DNA of 61,319 nucleotides from an uncultured Pseudomonadales bacterium (GTDB taxonomy: Bacteria; Patescibacteriota; Microgenomatia; UBA1400; PJMF01). A program made the position numbers and the translations under genes. Position 1 is the first letter of the stretch. Each line of letters begins with the position of its first letter. The notes beneath the pieces were generated by a model. It was not told the DNA's origin, ran no database searches, and worked only from the letters and a program-made list of their open reading frames with translations. Shown in pieces: positions 9,918 to 61,319 of the stretch. The stretch is from contig CAZBTU010000003.1 in NCBI GenBank assembly GCA_964494905.1, forward strand, positions 1 to 61,319, given 5' to 3'.

Positions 9918-12380
9918 ATGCATGAATTGACTAGAGTTAATGAAATTAACAAACCGGCAGAGTTACCACCAAAAATCTCCCAGGTAACAGAGAAACCCAT
10001 ACCTCAAGAACTTCAACCATACAAAATTAAATCCGTCACAGAAGTTGGCCTAGAAACCGGCACAACTAGTGTTGTTTGCCAACTCGACAACAAACATGCG
10101 TACAATGCCCAGAGCTTGGCTGCTATTCGAGATCAGTTGGACCAGAATCGAGTTGCGGTAATGTTAGATAACAACTTCAAGGACAAAACCAGTGCTAGCT
10201 GGGTAAAGATCTTCAAGACCGTCAATGGCATAAAAACACTGGTAGCGCGATTTGACCCTCAGAGCAATGTTCTCCATGTTGATCACCACCTCACGACAGC
10301 AGAAATTGGTGAGACACCTCTCAACCAAGAGCTCAACCCAGAATTGCCAGCGTCAACGACACCACTGGTTGTTGCTTTTTTTCGCGGGCTGAGTGAAGGG
10401 ACACTCTTTACCGAAGATGAAAACTTCCCTGGTTGCATTGAATCTCTCAACAACACTTGGGATGCTCACCAATTCATGGTGTTTGTAGATCATTTTGATC
10501 CAGACTCTACAGAGTCATCAATGGCAGTGCTGAAGGCTAGCAGGGACAATGTTAATCACCAGTACTTTGATGAATTGGCAGCAACCACCCTGGACGCCGA
10601 CCACCGCGGGACGTATAGAACTAAAGATGGAGCCTCAAATGCTCGCGAAAAACTGGTCAAGGTACTCTCAGAACTCAGTATCCTGAGTGTACCAAGAACG
10701 ATCAAAGCACTTCAGGTTCTTGAAAATATCACCGACCACAATCAGCTTGCTGAAGCCCTGATAGCCAACAACATGCCAGACGCTGCTCAGTTATATCTGA
10801 ACTTTGAAAAAATATTGCAGTCCACCGAAGCAGTTGCTGAGTCTATGGCGGCACACTACGATGGTCATGGGAACGTGGTCTATAACGTGTTGGCGGGTGA
10901 TACAGAGCTAGATATGGCATACTTGGCGAGTGCTCTCCAGGAGAAATATGGCAAAGAGATCGGTCCAGACGGCATTGAAGTTTGTTTGATAGTCAAAGAT
11001 TATGGCCAGGTTGATGCTAGTAATTTTCCTGATGTTCACGAGTACGGCGTCTGGGTAAGAACCCTGCATGAAGCAGTGGATCTCAATAAATCTGGAGCAT
11101 TGCTTGAACTACTTGGCATCTATGGCCGGAGCACAGCCCGAGGGAACCGAAATGCAATTTCACACGTTTCACAACATGGAGTGACCTTTACTATTACGGG
11201 TACGGCTGATCTACTTGCCGACCTTAATGCAGGGAGCAGGTGGCGCTCTAAAAACGCATGGGGACTGATTAAAACCCTTGAAATGATCTTCGACCGTGAC
11301 CCAGCTTCACACACTATAGAACAATATATTGGATCTCGACCCGATAGTGTGCGCAGGTCCAGAACAATACCGGGGACCAACCAAGAACGAGGCGTTGCGT
11401 TGGACACGATCAGTACGGGTGAGCGAAGTGGTGAACAACGCGTCATCAAGTACCTCATTTATCCACCGGGTGAATCCCCTAATCAGGAATTCATATCAGA
11501 AGTACATACTGCCGGAGTTGCTGCTGCACTCCTTTGGCGTGACGGGCGACAGTTGGTGCTCATCCCAGAAACAATCGGACTTCACATCAAACCAGGGTTC
11601 GTCGGAGCAGAGTTTGAACGTGTTCAGATGCTTAATGATCCCAAACTAAATGAGATGGGTATGCCAATCGTGGAAGACGGGCAACATCAGTTTGCTCAGG
11701 TAAGTGAGCACTCAGAAGCAATGCTAGCCCACTTAGATGACATGAGAAATGTTCCCATAGCTATTTTAGATGCAGGGAAAGTAAGGGTGGCAAGTGCAGC
11801 TGAGTACAAATCAGATGTAACAAACTTACTTGCTGATTTACCAATAGGTTTACTACCTCTGCAGCAGATAGAGATGATACAACAACTAGAGTTTCACTTT
11901 GATCAGAATGAGAGGGTCTTAGTAAATGGCCGCACAAAACCTGATAACATGTTTGTAAAAGTGGACCGAATTGGGCAAACTGACTGGCAGTCAATCAAGC
12001 AAGGACATAGATATGAAGATCAAGTGTCCCTCCTCAGTAGTTTTCTGTTGATGAACCCTGCAGAGATAAACCGATACGCCAGGGGGATGGATTTCAAGAA
12101 CCCTGATGTACAATTTCTATTTATCAGTCGGGCACTCTTTGCTTTGCAGTACAACATAGATAAAATAAAAAGACTTGAAGAAGAGAACAATTATAGTGAA
12201 GTGGAAATCACAAAACTGAAGGTGCGTATTCACCTTGAGATTGTCACATGGGCACTGTCTGATCAAAAAGATTTAAGCAGGTTGCAACAATTAAGTGGAG
12301 AATTACGCAAAAAGCTGCAGGAACATAGACCAAGCACTGCACATCAAGCGAATCAGATGTTCGGTACTTCTGTTGGTTGA
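9918..12380 (+). CDS. Large hypothetical protein (820 aa) with a degenerate DHH/DHHA1-like N-terminal region and a C-terminal coiled coil
   Basis: LHVDHHL (nt 10281-10289), followed by ELPASTTPLVVAFF, resembles DHH motif III and its following helix. VWVRTLHEAVDLNKSGALLELLGIYGRSTARGNRNAIS resembles the DHHA1 ...GGGGHxNAAG segment, but the GGGH is replaced. Resemblance is by eye only. Confidence 0.6.
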   Translation: MHELTRVNEINKPAELPPKISQVTEKPIPQELQPYKIKSVTEVGLETGTTSVVCQLDNKHAYNAQSLAAIRDQLDQNRVAVMLDNNFKDKTSASWVKIFKTVNGIKTLVARFDPQSNVLHVDHHLTTAEIGETPLNQELNPELPASTTPLVVAFFRGLSEGTLFTEDENFPGCIESLNNTWDAHQFMVFVDHFDPDSTESSMAVLKASRDNVNHQYFDELAATTLDADHRGTYRTKDGASNAREKLVKVLSELSILSVPRTIKALQVLENITDHNQLAEALIANNMPDAAQLYLNFEKILQSTEAVAESMAAHYDGHGNVVYNVLAGDTELDMAYLASALQEKYGKEIGPDGIEVCLIVKDYGQVDASNFPDVHEYGVWVRTLHEAVDLNKSGALLELLGIYGRSTARGNRNAISHVSQHGVTFTITGTADLLADLNAGSRWRSKNAWGLIKTLEMIFDRDPASHTIEQYIGSRPDSVRRSRTIPGTNQERGVALDTISTGERSGEQRVIKYLIYPPGESPNQEFISEVHTAGVAAALLWRDGRQLVLIPETIGLHIKPGFVGAEFERVQMLNDPKLNEMGMPIVEDGQHQFAQVSEHSEAMLAHLDDMRNVPIAILDAGKVRVASAAEYKSDVTNLLADLPIGLLPLQQIEMIQQLEFHFDQNERVLVNGRTKPDNMFVKVDRIGQTDWQSIKQGHRYEDQVSLLSSFLLMNPAEINRYARGMDFKNPDVQFLFISRALFALQYNIDKIKRLEEENNYSEVEITKLKVRIHLEIVTWALSDQKDLSRLQQLSGELRKKLQEHRPSTAHQANQMFGTSVG

Positions 12381-55049: not shown

Positions 55050-55258
55050 GCAGAGAGCTCCAATAGGCAGCCAGCACCTGCCGATTCGTACCAAGTGGGT
55101 ACGAAGAGCTGTTTGGGATTATAACCAAGCCGGGCAAGCCCGTAATAGCTGGAATTAAGAGCTGCATGTGTACAATGCAGATCAAGAGGTGGCACCGTCT
55201 TCGCCCTCGAAGGCCCTCTTGCATTCATCATTTTTGGTGAGTGTGAGAGGGTTTTTTA
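55050..55258 (+). promoter_or_regulatory. T-box riboswitch leader controlling serS
   Basis: T-box sequence AAGAGGTGGCACCG at 55184-55197. Antiterminator helix AAGAGG (55184-55189) pairs with CCTCTT (55215-55220), leaving a UGGCACC bulge. The competing terminator pairs CCCTCT (55214-55219) with AGAGGG (55246-55251), followed by TTTTTT. A TATAAT -10 lies at 55042-55047. AGAGAG lies near the 5' end. Confidence 0.75.
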
Positions 55259-55290
55259 GTAGTTACGACCCACTGGGCATAAAGGAAGCA

Positions 55291-57266: not shown

Positions 57267-60203
57267 ATGTTTAAATTCTTATCTAGAATATTTGACGAAA
57301 ATCAAAAATCACTTAACAGGTACCAACAAGTCCTCGAGTTGATAAACAATCAAGAATCGAAGATTGCTTCCTTGAGCGATAAACAGTTAGCTGCCCAAAC
57401 TCATAAATTCAAAGAGATAATCTCGCAAAAACAAACACAAGGTGTGCCTGACAAAACTATTCTTGACGAACTTCTACCAGAGGTATTCGCTACAGTACGA
57501 GAAGCATCACGAAGAGTACTTGGAATGAGGCACTTCGATGTGCAGCTCCTTGCTGGCATCGCACTTCACCATGGAACCATCACTGAGCAGAAGACAGGTG
57601 AAGGCAAGACCCTAACCGTGACCGCTCCCTTATACCTAAATGCATTGCTAGGCAAAGGTGCTCATCTCGTGACTGTGAATGACTATCTTGCTGAGCTCGG
57701 AGTAGGCTGGATGGGACCAATCTACCATTTTTTGGGACTCACTAGTGCGGTCATAATCCATGACAAGTCATACCAATACAATCCTGACGCTGAGAGTGAA
57801 GAACGAGGCGACGAGAGACTTGAACATTTTCAAACTATCACCAGAGTAGCTGCTTATGCTGCTGATATTACATACGGAACAAATAATGAGTTTGGTTTTG
57901 ATTACCTGCGAGACAACATGGTCAGATCACTCGATGATATGGTCCAACGAGTCGACACGCCGCACTACTACACCATTGTCGATGAGGCTGACTCAATTTT
58001 GATAGATGAGGCCAGAACACCACTCATCATTTCCATGCCGGATGTGGAACCAACCAAAAAATACTATGATTACGCAAAAATGGTCATCAGTCTTAACAAA
58101 GACATTGATTATCACCTGGATGAGAAGGCAAGAAGTGTCACCTTGACGGATCTTGGTGTCAAGCGAATTGAACAGAAACTTGGGGTGGACAACCTATATG
58201 AAGAAAGCTTTGATACCATTCACCACATTGAGTCTGCGCTCAAAGCAAAAACTTTATATCTCAGAGACAAGGAATATATTGTCCGCGAGGGTCAAGTCAT
58301 AATTGTCGACGAACACACCGGACGATTGATGTACGGTCGTCGTTACTCCGATGGTTTGCATCAAGCCATAGAAGCGAAAGAAGGTGCTCAGATTCAACAA
58401 GAGTCACGCACACTGGCTACCATATCCCTGCAAAATTACTTTCGTTTGTATGAGCGACTCAGTGGTATGACCGGTACGGCTGCGACCGAAGCAGAGGAGT
58501 TTAAGAAGATCTATGACGTTGAAGTCCTCGTTATTCCCACAAACGTGCCTGTTGTCAGAGAGGATAAGCCTGACCAAGTCTACAAGTCCACTGGCGCAAA
58601 GTACGGGGCGATCGTGCGTGCTGTCGCCGAAATTCACGAAACCGGCCGACCAATTTTACTGGGAACTCGATCAATAGAGCACAATCAAATCATCTCTGAT
58701 TTATTAAAACGCAAAGGTGTTCCACACCAAGTATTGAATGCAAAAAACCATGAAAAAGAAGCATTTATCATTGCCGACGCGGGAAAAAATGGAGCTATCA
58801 CAGTTGCTACCAACATTGCAGGTCGCGGTGTTGATATTGTCTTAGGTGGTTCGAAACCTGAACTCAAGGATTACCGCAAAAAATCTGTAAAGGCTGGTCA
58901 AGAAAAGGAAGCACAAAAAGAAGCAGTTGCTCTAGGTCTTCGACTCCCTCCCTCTGTTAACCCAGCTGAGTACAAGTTGGGAATGTACGCAAATGCCTTA
59001 GCTCAATGGCAAGCAGCTCATGATGATATTGTTGCCGCTGGTGGACTGTACATCGTCGGAACTGAGCGCCATGAATCACGGCGAATTGATAATCAGCTCA
59101 GAGGTCGTTCTGGAAGACAAGGCGATCCAGGCACCACCCAGTTTTTTGTTTCACTCGAAGACGAAATCATGAGGATTTTTGGCGGTGAACAAATTGCAAA
59201 AATAATGGACTTCCTCAAAATTGATGAAAACATGCCCATTGAGCATTCCATGGTAAGCAAATCAATCGAGTCAGCCCAAGTCAAAGTGGAAGGCTTCTTC
59301 TTTGACCAACGAAAAAGACTGGTTGAGTTCGATGACGTCATGAATAAACAACGTGAAGTAATTTATCAACGCCGTCGTCGATTATTGGAGCAAGCAAGCA
59401 CAACTCCCGACTCGGTACCGGGTGCAGATTCCCTTACTCAACTCATAAAAAGTTATGTTGACCACGAAGTGACCACTCTAGTAAGCCTTTATGCACCGAA
59501 AGGCTTCACACCACAAGAATACGAAGCTATCATCAAGGAGTTTTGTAAAATTATCCCATTTGACCAAGCTTCCCAAAAACAATTGATGTCCAAAATAAGC
59601 ACTCAGACTGATGTCGAAGCAATTAGCCAAACACTCAGCGATGTTGCTGAAGACGTATACCGATCAAAAGAACAACAACTTGGTAGTACCAGTATGCGTG
59701 AGCTTGAGCGAATAGTAACACTCACAACTCTGGATCAAAAGTGGATGGATCATTTAGATGCTATGGACTCGCTCAGAGAAGGAATATGGCTACGAGGTGA
59801 TAAAAAAACTGTGCTTTCTGAATACAAAAAAGAGGCTTTTGCTATGTTCGAAGCGTTAGTTGCTTCAATAGAAGCCAGTATTGCGAGCGCTGTCTATCGT
59901 GCTGTACCAAACCGCCTAACAACCAAGACAACACAACTTAATAAGGCTGTTGAACACAAAGAAGTACTCACCGGTTCACTAGCCGAAGAGGTTGCCGCGG
60001 TCGAGCCTCCTTCAGTTCGTCCAGTGAATGCAAAAGGTTCTCTCGCTGATCTAGCTCAAGCACTTGGATCAACCACAACAAACAAAAAAGCTACTCCCGG
60101 CAGTGCCCAAGTAAAAATCGGCAGGAATGATCCGTGCCCTTGCGGCAGTGGTCTGAAGTACAAGAAATGCGGATTAATTAATGCTGCAGTGCACAGAGCT
60201 TGA
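57267..60203 (+). CDS. secA: Preprotein translocase ATPase SecA
   Basis: MRHFDVQLLAG, TGEGKTL Walker A, DEADSILIDEARTPLII, TERHESRRIDNQLRGRSGRQGDPG, and C-terminal zinc motif CPCGSGLKYKKCG. Confidence 0.93.
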   Translation: MFKFLSRIFDENQKSLNRYQQVLELINNQESKIASLSDKQLAAQTHKFKEIISQKQTQGVPDKTILDELLPEVFATVREASRRVLGMRHFDVQLLAGIALHHGTITEQKTGEGKTLTVTAPLYLNALLGKGAHLVTVNDYLAELGVGWMGPIYHFLGLTSAVIIHDKSYQYNPDAESEERGDERLEHFQTITRVAAYAADITYGTNNEFGFDYLRDNMVRSLDDMVQRVDTPHYYTIVDEADSILIDEARTPLIISMPDVEPTKKYYDYAKMVISLNKDIDYHLDEKARSVTLTDLGVKRIEQKLGVDNLYEESFDTIHHIESALKAKTLYLRDKEYIVREGQVIIVDEHTGRLMYGRRYSDGLHQAIEAKEGAQIQQESRTLATISLQNYFRLYERLSGMTGTAATEAEEFKKIYDVEVLVIPTNVPVVREDKPDQVYKSTGAKYGAIVRAVAEIHETGRPILLGTRSIEHNQIISDLLKRKGVPHQVLNAKNHEKEAFIIADAGKNGAITVATNIAGRGVDIVLGGSKPELKDYRKKSVKAGQEKEAQKEAVALGLRLPPSVNPAEYKLGMYANALAQWQAAHDDIVAAGGLYIVGTERHESRRIDNQLRGRSGRQGDPGTTQFFVSLEDEIMRIFGGEQIAKIMDFLKIDENMPIEHSMVSKSIESAQVKVEGFFFDQRKRLVEFDDVMNKQREVIYQRRRRLLEQASTTPDSVPGADSLTQLIKSYVDHEVTTLVSLYAPKGFTPQEYEAIIKEFCKIIPFDQASQKQLMSKISTQTDVEAISQTLSDVAEDVYRSKEQQLGSTSMRELERIVTLTTLDQKWMDHLDAMDSLREGIWLRGDKKTVLSEYKKEAFAMFEALVASIEASIASAVYRAVPNRLTTKTTQLNKAVEHKEVLTGSLAEEVAAVEPPSVRPVNAKGSLADLAQALGSTTTNKKATPGSAQVKIGRNDPCPCGSGLKYKKCGLINAAVHRA

Positions 60204-60235
60204 CATCCTGCGTATAATTAATAACCATAACTGAA

Positions 60236-60386
60236 TAAAAGCACTAGAGTTTGGTTTCCCGCCAAACAAGCTGCATGCGAGGAGCATGACGGAAGGGCAC
60301 CGTAAAAATGTACCCAAAGTGTGTCGCGAGAGCGGAGCACTCAAAGATGTAGTGGAGACTGAACGCACTGGTGTGCGTTTTTTTTA
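60236..60386 (+). promoter_or_regulatory. Structured leader RNA with an intrinsic terminator upstream of prs copy 2 (candidate riboswitch, class unassigned)
   Basis: Hairpins: GTTTGG-tttcccg-CCAAAC; CATGC-gagga-GCATG; GGGCAC-cgtaaaaat-GTACCC; GTG-t-CGC-GAGA-GCG-ga-CAC. Terminator ACGCAC-tggt-GTGCGT + T8 at 60363-60386. GTGTGT (60319-60324) can alternatively pair with ACGCAC. A TATAAT lies at 60213-60218. Confidence 0.45.
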
Positions 60387-60495
60387 TTCCAAACTATATG
60401 CAGCAAGGTGGTGCCACGAGTATCCAAGCAGGATTAGAAAAAATGGGTTACTCTTCCAAGTAGCAAACTCAGGCAATCTTGAGTACAATCACCAT

Positions 60496-61319
60496 ATGAA
60501 ACTCCTTTCTGGTTCTTCTAATCTACCTCTAGCACAATCAATTGCTCAAGGTTTGCAAATTCCTTTAGTGAACGCGGAGATAACTCATTTTGCAAATAAT
60601 GAGCGTAGGGTCTGGATAAAAGATGATGTCCGTGGCGAAAACGTAGTTCTTGTTCAGTCATTCTCTGACCCTGCGGACGAGCACATTATGGAGTTTCTGC
60701 TTATGGTTGATGCATTAGAAAGAATGGGTGCACGCCATGTCAATGCAGTGATACCTTGGATGGGGTACTCACTCCAAGACAAAGTGTTCCGCTATGGAGA
60801 GCCAATTGCTGCCAAGGTTGTTGCAAACTTAGTCTCAAATACGTACGTGAAACGGGTATTCCTACTCGATCTTCATAACACTAGCACTCCCGGTTTTTTC
60901 TCCATTCCTTCTGTACACGTCAGCGCACTACAGCTATTTGCCCAATACATCAAAGATAAATTTGATCAGAATAATTTAATAGTCGCGAGTCCAGATTTTG
61001 GTGGACTCAAACGCGCCAGAACGTTTGCAGATGTCTTGAACACAGAACTAATCAATATCGATAAACACAGAGACTTAACAACTGGGGAAGTTTCGGCACA
61101 GAGCGTACAAGGTGGTTCGGCCAAAGGAAAAACTGTTGTATTATTTGATGACTGTGTGTTGTCCGGAGCGACAGTTCTTGAAGCAGCGGCATTGCTCAAA
61201 AAAGAGGGTGCTCAAGAGGTTCACTTTGTGGCAACGCATGGACTATTCACGGGTGATGCACTAGCTAAGCTGGCTCAGTCTGACTGCGACAGCATTATCA
61301 CTACCAACTCAATCGCACA
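60496..61319 (+). CDS. prs: Ribose-phosphate pyrophosphokinase (PRPP synthetase), copy 2, 3'-truncated by the window edge
   Basis: Hand translation from the ATG at 60496: MKLLSGSSNLPLAQSIAQGL...FANNERRVWI...VIPWMGYSLQDK...VVLFDDCVLSGATV. Classic Prs N-terminus and PRPP loop. Absent from the ORF track because no stop codon falls inside the window. Confidence 0.85.
   Translation, partial: MKLLSGSSNLPLAQSIAQGLQIPLVNAEITHFANNERRVWIKDDVRGENVVLVQSFSDPADEHIMEFLLMVDALERMGARHVNAVIPWMGYSLQDKVFRYGEPIAAKVVANLVSNTYVKRVFLLDLHNTSTPGFFSIPSVHVSALQLFAQYIKDKFDQNNLIVASPDFGGLKRARTFADVLNTELINIDKHRDLTTGEVSAQSVQGGSAKGKTVVLFDDCVLSGATVLEAAALLKKEGAQEVHFVATHGLFTGDALAKLAQSDCDSIITTNSIA

Follow-up and report, generated by a model that had tools for sequence, protein, structure and literature searches.

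In Bacillus subtilis, the proBA and proI leaders are class I T-boxes that respond to tRNA-Pro by transcription antitermination; in the proline leaders of Bacillus, Stem I is long, the specifier, CCU, sits in an internal loop, and a platform binds the tRNA elbow. A second architecture is represented by the class III T-boxes, such as the ileS leaders of Nocardia farcinica and Mycobacterium tuberculosis (classes in PMC10482949; structures in PMC7583486), and is defined by a short Stem I, an apical specifier loop, and a required Stem II domain (PMC10482949). In the T-box literature, the transcriptional type is held to need the long Stem I platform, and a short Stem I goes with translational control. 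In the B. subtilis glyQS leader, RNA polymerase pauses at Stem III at position 138 (Grundy and Henkin 2004, cited in PMC6197855), and the pause hairpin lies just 5' of the T-box sequence, where the polymerase is held so that tRNA can bind before the decision point; Stem III pausing has also been described in bioRxiv 10.64898/2026.03.06.710129.

We describe here a structured leader located between secA and the second prs gene (prs2) in a 61,319-nucleotide stretch of DNA (the window, meaning the whole stretch analysed) from the metagenome-assembled genome G000, which is in 137 contigs and 90% complete. In what follows, G002 is a genome of the same genus, and L-numbers denote leaders from metagenomes. 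Very probably, positions 60226-60420 are a proline T-box leader of the short-Stem-I type of Patescibacteria whose expression platform has been lost; most likely it is a T-box remnant that is now the 5' leader of prs2.

The leader shares with class III a short Stem I lacking the distal double-T-loop platform, an apical specifier, a Stem II, a compact Stem IIA/B pseudoknot with an F-box-like CCGUAA, a Stem III, and a UGGN bulge. It departs from class III in that the proline-type Stem II is cut to a 5-bp hairpin, the pseudoknot is separated from Stem III by an additional GNRA hairpin (H4), a long Stem III carries a terminator-like tip with a U-run, and the discriminator of the window copy is missing its 3' half; furthermore, the subfamily has Pro, Arg and Trp specificities rather than Ile, and class III is described as mostly translational, whereas the intact relatives of the window leader have intrinsic terminators. 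G002 and the metagenome relatives resemble Bacillus proBA and proI in that proB/proC-type genes appear to be under proline T-box control, but the window leader differs in its CCC specifier and no longer has a proline gene downstream.

Organization of the leader

All features described are on the plus strand. A promoter-like site, TGCACA-17-TATAAT (60190-60218), lies partly within the end of secA, whose stop codon is at 60203, and transcription would start near 60225. The G002 leader has TTGACA-17-TATAAT at the equivalent position, and TTGACA/TATAAT-like boxes are present at the same place in most relatives. A conserved 5' segment, AAAAGCACUAGA (60237-60248), kept as (U/C)AAAAGC.. ..GA across 33 leaders, ends in GA just 5' of Stem I, and this GA together with the AAG/GAG 3' of Stem I is a candidate K-turn-like flank.

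Stem I (60249-60267) is a 6-bp stem, GUUUGG/CCAAAC, with a 7-nt apical loop, UUUCCCG (5 nt if U-G closes), and all six pairs covary; the specifier CCC, coding for proline, is at 60258-60260 and is followed by G. Stem II (60274-60288) is the 5-bp hairpin CAUGC-GAGGA-GCAUG, again with covariation at every pair (variants include CGUGC/GCACG, CGUAC/GUACG and CGUAG/CUACG). An S-turn is not recognisable in the 5-bp proline-type Stem II, and the Arg-type relatives have a longer distal extension here.

The Stem IIA/B pseudoknot (60289-60315) consists of IIA, ACGG (60289-60292) with CCGU (60300-60303), and IIB, GGG (60295-60297) with CCC (60313-60315), and the F-box-like CCGUAA is at 60300-60305. The F-box and pseudoknot match the description in PMC7583486, with CCGUCA as the N. 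farcinica F-box. IIA is nearly invariant (31-33 of 33 leaders); for IIB, the window and G002 have GGG/CCC, whereas some 20 relatives of the Pro and Arg types, one excepted, have GUC/GAC. The same layout is seen in the serS T-box of the window. The exact string (ACGGRAGGGYACCGTAA...CCCAA) gave no match in the genome and metagenome collections and is specific to G000 and G002.

H4 (60318-60341) has the form AGUGUGUCGC-GAGA-GCGGAGCACU with a GNRA loop, its strands being located as AGTGTGTCGC-GAGA-GCGGAGCACT, and seven of its nine pairs covary. Its U-G/G-A/U-G core is conserved, with the two U-G pairs kept in 32/33 and 28/33 leaders; the outer pair varies (U-A, C-G or A-U), and the loop is GAGA in the window and GCAA in G002. 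No counterpart of H4 was found described in the literature on canonical T-boxes. We considered whether the 5' AAGCAC might pair with the 5' strand of H4 as a closing helix; inspection of the relatives gave no consistent pairing.

Stem III (60347-60399) is long and built in two parts. The lower stem, AUGUAGU-GGA (60347-60356) with UCC-aa-ACUAUAU (60388-60399), is re-paired in every relative; in G002 the sequence differs but is equally paired (GAAUAGUUGAG/CUUCAAUUAUUC). The tip hairpin, GAACGCAC-UGGU-GUGCGUUU (60361-60380), has eight pairs and a 4-nt loop, includes the inner hairpin ACGCAC-TGGT-GTGCGT (60363-60378), has a computed stability of -10.6 kcal/mol, and is followed by a U-run to 60385. 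As a G+C-rich hairpin with a U-tract, the tip has the sequence form of an intrinsic terminator, and between secA and prs2 the plus strand has no terminator-like site other than this hairpin with its T tail. The initial annotation had placed the end of the leader at this terminator, about 110 nt before the ATG at 60496; the hairpin and T-run are there, but they make up the Stem III tip, 5' of the T-box sequence, and are not the end of the leader. Stem III has this two-part form, its covarying G+C tip leading straight into U4-U8, in 23 of the 27 related genome leaders whose folds were listed, and about 29 of about 55 metagenome leaders share it.

The position of this tip and U-run corresponds to that of the glyQS Stem III pause, with the differences that the tip is G+C-rich, is directly followed by U5-U8, has the look of a full terminator, and sits inside a longer covarying stem. 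That the U-run makes up for an absent platform does not apply to every short-stem T-box: in G000, the serS, ileS, glyS and aspS leaders have a short Stem I and lack a U-run after Stem III. We also considered whether UGGU in the tip loop might replace the T-box bulge; this tetraloop occurs in G000 and L218 but not in G002 (UGUA) or L164 (GGUCUA), and is probably a coincidence.

The 5' half of a T-box discriminator follows at 60403-60420, comprising the A1 5' strand GCAAGG, the bulge UGGUGCC, and the A2 5' strand ACGAG; the consensus of about 55 metagenome proline leaders at the discriminator is AAGGTGGTACCACGAG. The U of UGGU fits A73 of tRNA-Pro(GGG). The bulge differs from the consensus UGGUACC in that the ACC part reads GCC, and G at bulge position 5 is found in none of about 60 relatives. 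The 292-nt segment 60204-60495 folds better than shuffled sequences (z = -2.55; 3 of 200 shuffles as good).

Homology and structural conservation

The four hairpins that the initial annotation had reported in 60236-60386 are all present at those positions, and the structure that they form covaries across relatives. In an alignment of 33 homologous leaders with 30 base pairs, 97.4% of cells pair and 24 of the 30 pairs have changed on both sides; the covariation score is 0.459, against 0.129 in shuffled controls (0 of 500 as good) and at most 0.068 when the structure was slid. The leader structure is thus conserved far beyond chance. Leader DNA identity with G002 is 81% overall and 89% in the core, and secA and prs2 are 77% and 68% identical; comparison of leaders of orthologous genes, as had been suggested, places the element between secA and prs2 in G002 too.

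A covariance model built from the window leader and its G002 homologue only (R1) matches leaders in other genera and families at E values of 1e-13 to 1e-27 and scores 27-110 bits on non-proline leaders. In the other direction, an nhmmer profile of 25 non-proline leaders (Arg, Trp and other; most of them complete, with L055 lacking Stem III) has a single match in the window, at 60236-60418 (E=1.7e-25). Eight leaders found with R1 match the Rfam T-box model RF00230 (E 2e-7 to 5e-3), and Arg-type siblings score 30-46 bits, the gathering threshold being 93 bits. RF00230 itself gives no match at E<=10 on window positions 60150-60560 or on the G002 leader, and the serS leader of the window reaches 25 bits (E 9e-4), below the gathering threshold. 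A scan of the collections with a Stem I pattern returned 72 loci, and an exact SecA look-up found no further assembly. On these sequence comparisons, the element is a member of a T-box subfamily of Patescibacteria with a short Stem I; we found no description in the literature of the short-stem T-boxes that ultrasmall (CPR) bacteria commonly have.

The suggestion of a ykkC-like or other known riboswitch was not borne out by Rfam: a cmscan search with all 4227 families of Rfam 15 gave nothing at the gathering score, and the 411-nt stretch 60150-60560 matched no model at E<=10. Housekeeping small RNAs (SRP, 6S, RNase P and tmRNA) were ruled out, as there is no Rfam match and the element is tied to the genes downstream. 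That the leader is a cis-acting structured RNA of a riboswitch family with a promoter-like site holds, but its T-box homology speaks against a sensor of PRPP, ppGpp or nucleoside diphosphates; nor is it a different or new class, being homologous to T-box leaders whose codon tracks the amino-acid genes downstream.

Specificity and downstream genes

The apical loops of the proline-type leaders are UUUCCCG, UCCCCCG and UACCCCG, with CCC as the sole constant triplet and CCC(G) constant. In relatives, CCC leaders precede proB-like genes, proC, ocd, trbp (a CsaA/Trbp111-like tRNA-binding gene) and proS; assignments include an ocd (422 bits, cut-off 350) and a proS (315 bits, cut-off 307). Sibling leaders have CGC before argH or tRNA-Arg(GCG), and UGG before trpB-like genes or tRNA-Trp(CCA). 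At about 90 homologous loci the element is always co-oriented with and directly upstream of codon-matching genes, and nearly always runs on into a T-box discriminator. G000 has a single copy of the element per specificity and has a tRNA-Pro(GGG). The next gene in the window, prs2, has no amino-acid identity. Judged from its apical loop and from the genes behind related leaders, the window leader is probably a proline-specific decoder with CCC as its specifier.

Truncation of the leader and the junction with prs2

In intact relatives, Stem III and the discriminator 5' half are followed by the A2 and A1 3' strands, a competing terminator, and then proline genes (proB-proC, ocd or proC), a trbp gene, and proS or prs2. 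A complete antiterminator and terminator are present in G002, G254, G228, G168 and most metagenome relatives. G002 is organized as secA ... leader-proB-proC-trbp-(20 nt)-prs2, and the window as secA-leader-prs2. Although prs had seemed a logical regulatory target, prs2 in G002 is the fourth gene, behind proB-proC-trbp.

Homology to the relatives ends at 60415 in the comparison with G002 (blastn), at 60418 with the nhmmer profile, and at about 60420 with the intact relatives, which continue with CCTCGTCCTTG, a terminator and the ATG of proB where the window does not (MAFFT). In the 75-nt junction segment that follows (60421-60495), ACUCAGG-CAAU-CUUGAGU makes up a local hairpin and a TACAAT box lies 6 nt upstream of the ATG; there is no Shine-Dalgarno sequence. 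No antiterminator A1 or A2 3' strand is found in the segment (there is CCAAG where CCUUG is needed) and no second plus-strand terminator. The lack of these A1/A2 3' strands and of a terminator shows the window element to be a truncated derivative and not a complete T-box. A degenerate antiterminator in this segment (ACGAG...CUCUU, CAAGG...CCAAG) was considered and rejected, the similarity to four intact discriminators not being significant. No gene or fragment of proB, proC or ocd was found in the 90%-complete G000 assembly.

The gene after the junction, prs2 (60496-61319), encodes a ribose-phosphate diphosphokinase (TIGR01251, 275 bits, cut-off 113; Pfam Pribosyltran_N and others) and is cut by the contig end, continuing on contig C61 with an overlap. 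It shares 70% amino-acid identity with G002 prs2, which starts at the same Met, 20 nt past the trbp stop. An in-frame open reading frame begins at 60286 and would lengthen Prs by 70 residues, but it is not conserved.

The segment 60418-60495 is weakly similar to the 3' end of G002 trbp plus the spacer (38 of 2000 shuffles as good). We considered a microhomology deletion joining the T-box core to AAGGTGCTGCC, which is found close to the trbp end; given the weak similarity, we keep it as a possibility only. Against it, G000 has an intact trbp ortholog, on contig C25, and follows the T-box consensus through ACGAG. Since the trbp ortholog is on another contig, the event was not one simple deletion. 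There is precedent for such a fusion in the G017 leader (also L179/L189), where the T-box core is fused to the 3' end of ocd. In the diverged metagenome leaders L164/L204 and L218, which have no T-box core, the leader lies directly before trbp-proS.

Discussion

In the explanation that we favour, a deletion or rearrangement would have fused the 5' three-quarters of a proline T-box to prs2, which would already have been a distal gene of the operon, as in the same-genus genome, before the fusion. The leader probably retains binding of the tRNA-Pro anticodon, as far as can be judged from sequence, but the charging state could no longer be read and the terminator switch would be gone. With the discriminator 3' half and terminator lost, prs2 would be transcribed free of amino-acid control, either from the old T-box promoter or from the weak TACAAT box beside its ATG. 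By analogy with the glyQS pause, of which it may be an exaggerated version, the Stem III hairpin with U8 could act as a programmed pause or leaky stop before the discriminator, as it would in the intact relatives; proS is essential, and its position behind this hairpin and U-run in L164 and L218 indicates that termination there is not fully efficient. Speaking against a remnant, every helix of the decoding module is intact, with no decay. Because the module is undecayed and the leader is conserved above the level of secA and prs2, the loss must be recent unless selection still acts on the module.

This preservation also bears on a different reading, which we consider unlikely, that the decoder, H4 and the Stem III hairpin with its U-run are an autonomous attenuator, a discriminator-less tRNA sensor that is functional in the window. 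In such a mode, tRNA-Pro would shift H4 (GUGUGU...GAGCAC) to a GUGUGU:ACGCAC pairing, the tip would be blocked, and polymerase would read through into prs2. The antiterminator role given to GUGUGU (60319-60324) by the initial annotation has a real basis in its complementarity to ACGCAC (60363-60368), with six pairs, one of them G-U. Pairings of this type with 6-7 contiguous pairs recur in 14 of 61 leaders, including those of the window, G002, L164 and L218; in L164/L204 and L218 the U7 of Stem III runs straight into trbp-proS, and hints that the decoding module with the Stem III hairpin and U-run may work alone come from these leaders. The decoding module of the window is strongly conserved as well as intact, and a U-run after a covarying G+C hairpin, the signature of termination or pausing, is kept in most relatives. 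But forcing the alternative fold costs about 11 kcal/mol relative to H4 plus tip (-13.9 vs -24.8), nearly all other leaders have just 2-4 such pairs (one has 5), and the 14 leaders perhaps represent 3-4 lineages, most of them having a complete discriminator and second terminator besides. H4 covaries strongly and hence forms, and since GUGUGU is almost constant among the leaders, the alternative pairing lacks covariation that is truly two-sided. Moreover, the L164 H4 deviates from the family consensus, and the attenuator would have no RNA part able to read the aminoacylation state.

Other readings fare worse. It is very improbable that the truncation is an assembly artefact and that the real genome has an intact T-box-proB-proC operon: the assembly is fragmented and incomplete, and the trbp ortholog lies directly behind a 100-N scaffold gap on its contig, but the leader junction is internal to a contig of 61 kb and no long repeat is found where the parts meet, the absence of proB, proC and ocd fragments extends to the whole assembly, and comparable natural truncations occur in G017 and on two independent metagenome contigs, L179 and L189. 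We give similarly little weight to a stand-alone RNA of about 160 nt, running from the promoter at 60190-60218 to a terminator at 60385 and acting in trans, for example by binding tRNA-Pro. It would account for the promoter-like site and terminator-like end, for flanks that differ between G000 and G002, and for an element kept after discriminator loss in G000 and G017, but it sits poorly with some 90 loci co-oriented with codon-matched genes, nearly always with a discriminator, and with one copy per specificity. Least probable of all, and close to negligible, is a ykkC-like or new small-molecule riboswitch (for PRPP, ppGpp, NDP or guanidine) acting on prs through 60361-60385. The motifs that prompted it (CUAGAGUU, CGAGGAG, ACGG and GGG..AAAAA..CCC), with a terminator-like hairpin before a PRPP synthetase gene, are real though loose, but in T-box terms they fall in the flanks of Stem I, in the loop of Stem II, and in the IIA/B pseudoknot, the last holding both ACGG and GGG...AAAAA...CCC. 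The likeness to ykkC/guanidine-I and to the ykkC subtype 2 riboswitches for ppGpp, PRPP and ADP/CDP (ACGG, a GGG-A-rich-CCC, a terminator-like hairpin, and a nucleotide-metabolism gene) is superficial only: there is no covariance-model match, the fold is a pseudoknot and not P1-P3, the loop codon of each homologue goes with Pro, Arg or Trp genes or the cognate tRNA genes downstream and not with guanidine-, purine-, PRPP- or ppGpp-related ones, and the gene after the leader in G002 is proB, not prs.

The locus being most likely a remnant, its own importance is modest, and it is a clear example of how gene loss (proB, proC) in a reduced genome leaves the front of a riboswitch before the next surviving gene. 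With scores far under the RF00230 cut-off, the T-boxes of Patescibacteria can easily be taken for new classes of riboswitch. As judged from its sequences, the subfamily joins a class-III-like decoder to intrinsic terminators, and it adds two undescribed parts, the GNRA hairpin with its U-G/G-A/U-G core and the terminator-like Stem III. We think it unlikely that the decoder, H4 and the Stem III hairpin with U-run form a first, self-sufficient checkpoint of the subfamily, dependent on the tRNA anticodon and working through GUGUGU:ACGCAC. If so, it would explain why these parts are retained intact in the window, L164 and L218 without a discriminator, and the window leader would function as a 'discriminator-less T-box', linking expression of PRPP synthetase to tRNA-Pro. 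A pause at the Stem III hairpin and U-run, if true, would buy time for a decoder without a platform to catch its tRNA.

Leader features and the ykkC assignment

The genome that carries the window (G000) is a MAG, assembled as 1.45 Mb in 137 contigs and 90% complete; SecA similarity identifies it as a Patescibacterium near 'Pacebacteria'/Microgenomates MAGs, and its relatives have small genomes. The secA gene stops at 60203 and prs2, the second PRPP-synthetase gene, begins at the ATG at 60496, with a promoter-like TGCACA-17-TATAAT on the plus strand at 60190–60218 (consensus scan). The hairpins that the initial annotation described between these genes are all present on the plus strand: GTTTGG/CCAAAC (60249–60267), CATGC/GCATG (60274–60288), a GGG...CCC pairing (60295–60315), AGTGTGTCGC-GAGA-GCGGAGCACT (60318–60341), and ACGCAC-TGGT-GTGCGT with a T run to 60385. 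The last of these (60361–60380 plus its T tail) is the sole plus-strand terminator-like site between secA and prs2 in the consensus scan, and its 5' arm (ACGCAC, 60363–68) is complementary to GUGUGU (60319–24), as had been claimed. The leader stretch folds more stably than shuffled sequences (z = -2.55).

A ykkC-like riboswitch sensing PRPP, ppGpp or NDPs had been proposed here, with prs as the logical target. The Rfam scan suggested with that proposal was run, and gave no match in the leader region at gathering score (Rfam 15) and no ykkC-type or other meaningful match when 411 nt were searched permissively (E up to 10). The leader does belong to a riboswitch family, but the class is that of the tRNA-sensing T-boxes: the 'ykkC-like' motifs are Stem I to the IIA/B pseudoknot of a T-box, and the supposed terminator is the tip of a long Stem III, upstream of the T-box core.

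A T-box subfamily in Patescibacteria

The element is 89% identical in G002, a genome of the same genus, and the flanking DNA of the two is not alignable. Behind the G002 leader come genes for an amino-acid kinase, most similar to glutamate 5-kinase, and a pyrroline-5-carboxylate reductase, not prs, which speaks against prs as the original target. Conservation runs beyond the 'terminator' into AGCAAGGTGGT(A/G)CC, the T-box core; in G002 the core is followed by a textbook antiterminator, GCAAGG/CCUUGU around the bulge UGGUACC, and then by a terminator, CCCUUGUAA...UUACAAGGG + U7. Searching with a covariance model of just the window and G002 leaders gives strong matches (27–110 bits) in further genera of the family and further families of the order; RF00230 sees eight of these (E 2e-7 to 5e-3), well under its 93-bit cut-off. 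An nhmmer profile of 25 non-proline-type leaders only has a single match in the window, at 60236–60418 (E = 1.7e-25). Across 33 leaders, in an alignment fitted to the model and thus favouring the structure somewhat, 97.4% of cells pair, two-sided change occurs in 24 of 30 pairs, and the covariation score is 0.459; shuffling lowers it to 0.129, and sliding the partners to 0.068 or less. Covariation, which the initial annotation had sought among prs leaders, is strong, and the homologues precede proline, arginine and tryptophan genes, and prs2 is already the distal gene of the proline operon in G002. Judged by sequence and predicted fold, the leader (60226–60420) is a member of a T-box subfamily found in Patescibacteria.

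The subfamily leader opens with a conserved AAAAGC..., followed by a Stem I of 5–6 bp with the specifier in its apical loop, an (A/G)AGCUG segment, and a Stem II, which is a 5-bp hairpin in proline-type leaders but long in Arg-type ones. In the IIA/B pseudoknot, which carries an F-box-like CCGUAA, IIA is ACGG/CCGU. GUC/GAC is the usual form of IIB among the relatives, and the GGG/CCC of the window differs from it by a double compensatory change. An extra hairpin, H4, is capped by a GNRA loop, and its U-G/G-A/U-G core hardly varies. The lower part of the long Stem III varies yet is paired in every leader, and its tip is a G+C hairpin with U4–U8 directly after; a purine-rich linker then leads to the T-box core.

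By the scheme of PMC10482949, in which a short Stem I, a specifier placed in its apical loop and a Stem II domain characterise the mostly translational class III T-boxes, the decoder is class-III-like in all three features. Short Stem I has been tied to translational, actinobacterial leaders (PMC7583486; TBDB PMC7778990), whereas the intact relatives of the window leader are transcriptional. We found no publication linking T-boxes with CPR, Patescibacteria or Saccharibacteria.

Other T-boxes are present in G000. The serS leader of the window (55074–55260) matches RF00230 weakly (25 bits, E 9e-4) and shares its layout with the prs2 leader; its Stem I is almost deleted, AGU lies in the 7-nt loop CAAGUGG, and the bulge UGGCACC is followed by a terminator with U6. 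Its features mark it as a short-Stem-I T-box of another subfamily, without H4 and without a U-run after Stem III. Four further sub-threshold leaders (C14:3244-3410, C14:24338-24495, C106:1569-1757 and C43:6131-6335) precede glyS (GGC), ileS (AUC in loop CCAUCAC), aspS and one gene on C43; the ileS, glyS and aspS specifiers sit in small hairpin loops.

Specificity

The proline-type loop UUUCCCG is found in the window, in three other genomes (G254, G228 and G168) and in most of 72 metagenome loci, with UCCCCCG in G002 and UACCCCG in G017; the one constant part is CCC with the G after it. The genes behind these leaders include proB-like genes, proC, ornithine cyclodeaminase (ocd), a CsaA/Trbp111-type tRNA-binding protein (trbp; PF01588) and proS. 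Siblings with a CGC specifier lie upstream of argH or a tRNA-Arg(GCG) gene, and those with UGG upstream of a TrpB-like gene or a tRNA-Trp(CCA) gene. G000 encodes tRNA-Pro(GGG), whose discriminator A73 fits the U of UGGU.

Several leaders stand directly before the gene of the tRNA they read (L011 1501-1839, L014 1501-1843, L048 1501-1831, L061 1501-1851 and L053 105-436), with tRNA-Arg(GCG) right after the terminator of CGC-specifier leaders and tRNA-Trp(CCA) behind UGG-specifier leaders. In two genomes the tRNA-Arg(GCG) unit is followed by a conserved 314-aa protein (L011 1865-2806; L014) with no Pfam or NCBIfam match. A 111–112-aa PF01588 protein is regular in proline T-box operons, between proC/ocd and proS/prs2 (G002 C16 12228-12563; L040 2842-3177; L041 326-661; G000 C25 15210-15545).

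Truncation of the window copy

In G002, secA is followed after 1.3 kb by the leader, then by proB, proC and trbp, with prs2 20 nt behind trbp; in the window, secA, the leader and prs2 are direct neighbours. In an alignment with intact close relatives (L188, L160, L150, L171 and L199), the window agrees with the consensus as far as 60420, the end of GCAAGGTGGTGCCACGAG, and departs from it thereafter; the relatives go on to CCTCGTCCTTG, a terminator and the proB ATG. Downstream of the window core, the consensus scan and comparison with discriminators (the core plus helices A1/A2) reveal neither the A1/A2 3' strands nor a second terminator, and the bulge reads UGGUGCC, whose fifth-position G none of about 60 relatives shares. 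Neither proB, proC nor ocd occurs anywhere in the 90% complete assembly; the trbp ortholog, with 71% amino-acid identity, is encoded on contig C25 (15210-15545), immediately after a 100-N scaffold gap. Positions 60421–60495 have no significant similarity to intact discriminators and resemble the G002 trbp 3' end and spacer weakly, 38 of 2000 shuffles being equally good. These alignments show that the leader descends from a predicted proline T-box, with its decoding module intact and its switching half lost.

The G017 leader (L010 1501-1828) joins a core, CAAGGUGGAGUAC, to a stretch matching ocd (73% identity, blastx), an arrangement found too on metagenome contigs L179 and L189; it is a predicted second, independent truncated T-box with an intact decoding module, parallel to the window. 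Its upstream neighbourhood includes a prs gene, about 640 nt away.

Stem III and regulatory output

The tip stem of Stem III covaries, and pairing does not account for the U-run; we infer that the hairpin/U-run is itself a conserved signal. RNA polymerase pauses long at Stem III of glyQS, and producing this pause has been proposed as the main role of Stem III (PMC6197855; bioRxiv 10.64898/2026.03.06.710129). On these two grounds the hairpin/U-run may be read as an exaggerated pause or leaky stop, and a pause might buy a platform-less decoder time to capture tRNA. This would be no general rule, since the other short-stem T-boxes of G000 have no U-run after Stem III.

A functional switch lacking the discriminator could be imagined for the window, given that its decoding module has no broken pairs and is 81–89% conserved with G002, versus 68–77% for adjacent coding DNA. 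The alternative pairing that the initial annotation pointed out, of the H4 5' strand with the tip 5' arm, also reaches 6–7 contiguous pairs in 14 of 61 leaders (2–4 in nearly all others, five in one), but this fold is predicted to be about 11 kcal/mol less favourable, H4 itself covaries, most of the 14 also carry a full discriminator, and two-sided covariation for the pairing is lacking because the GUGUGU strand barely varies. Also in favour of such a switch are two diverged metagenome leaders (L164, identical to L204, and L218), in which the decoding module and H4 are present and the Stem III hairpin with U7 runs straight into trbp-proS, which starts 25–45 nt downstream of Stem III; between ~13 nt upstream and 230 nt downstream of the Stem I match they contain no T-box core and no second terminator, and they may be either further truncations or a working discriminator-less form. 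For the window we consider such a switch improbable, and its leader is, most likely, a remnant that no longer has a regulatory output.

An in-frame ATG at 60286 would extend prs2 by 70 residues (60286–60495); this extension is not conserved and was rejected as an ORF-caller trap, because the start Met of G002 prs2 corresponds to 60496. No Shine-Dalgarno sequence precedes that ATG in G000. A TACAAT box lies 6 nt before it (60484–60495) and 8 nt before the ATG in G002 (C16 about 12204-12225), and may act as an internal promoter from which prs2 mRNA starts with little or no leader. The remnant leader RNA would probably still bind the tRNA-Pro anticodon and be unable to sense charging, and prs2 would now be transcribed either from the former T-box promoter, with read-through of the Stem III hairpin and its U8, or from the TACAAT box.
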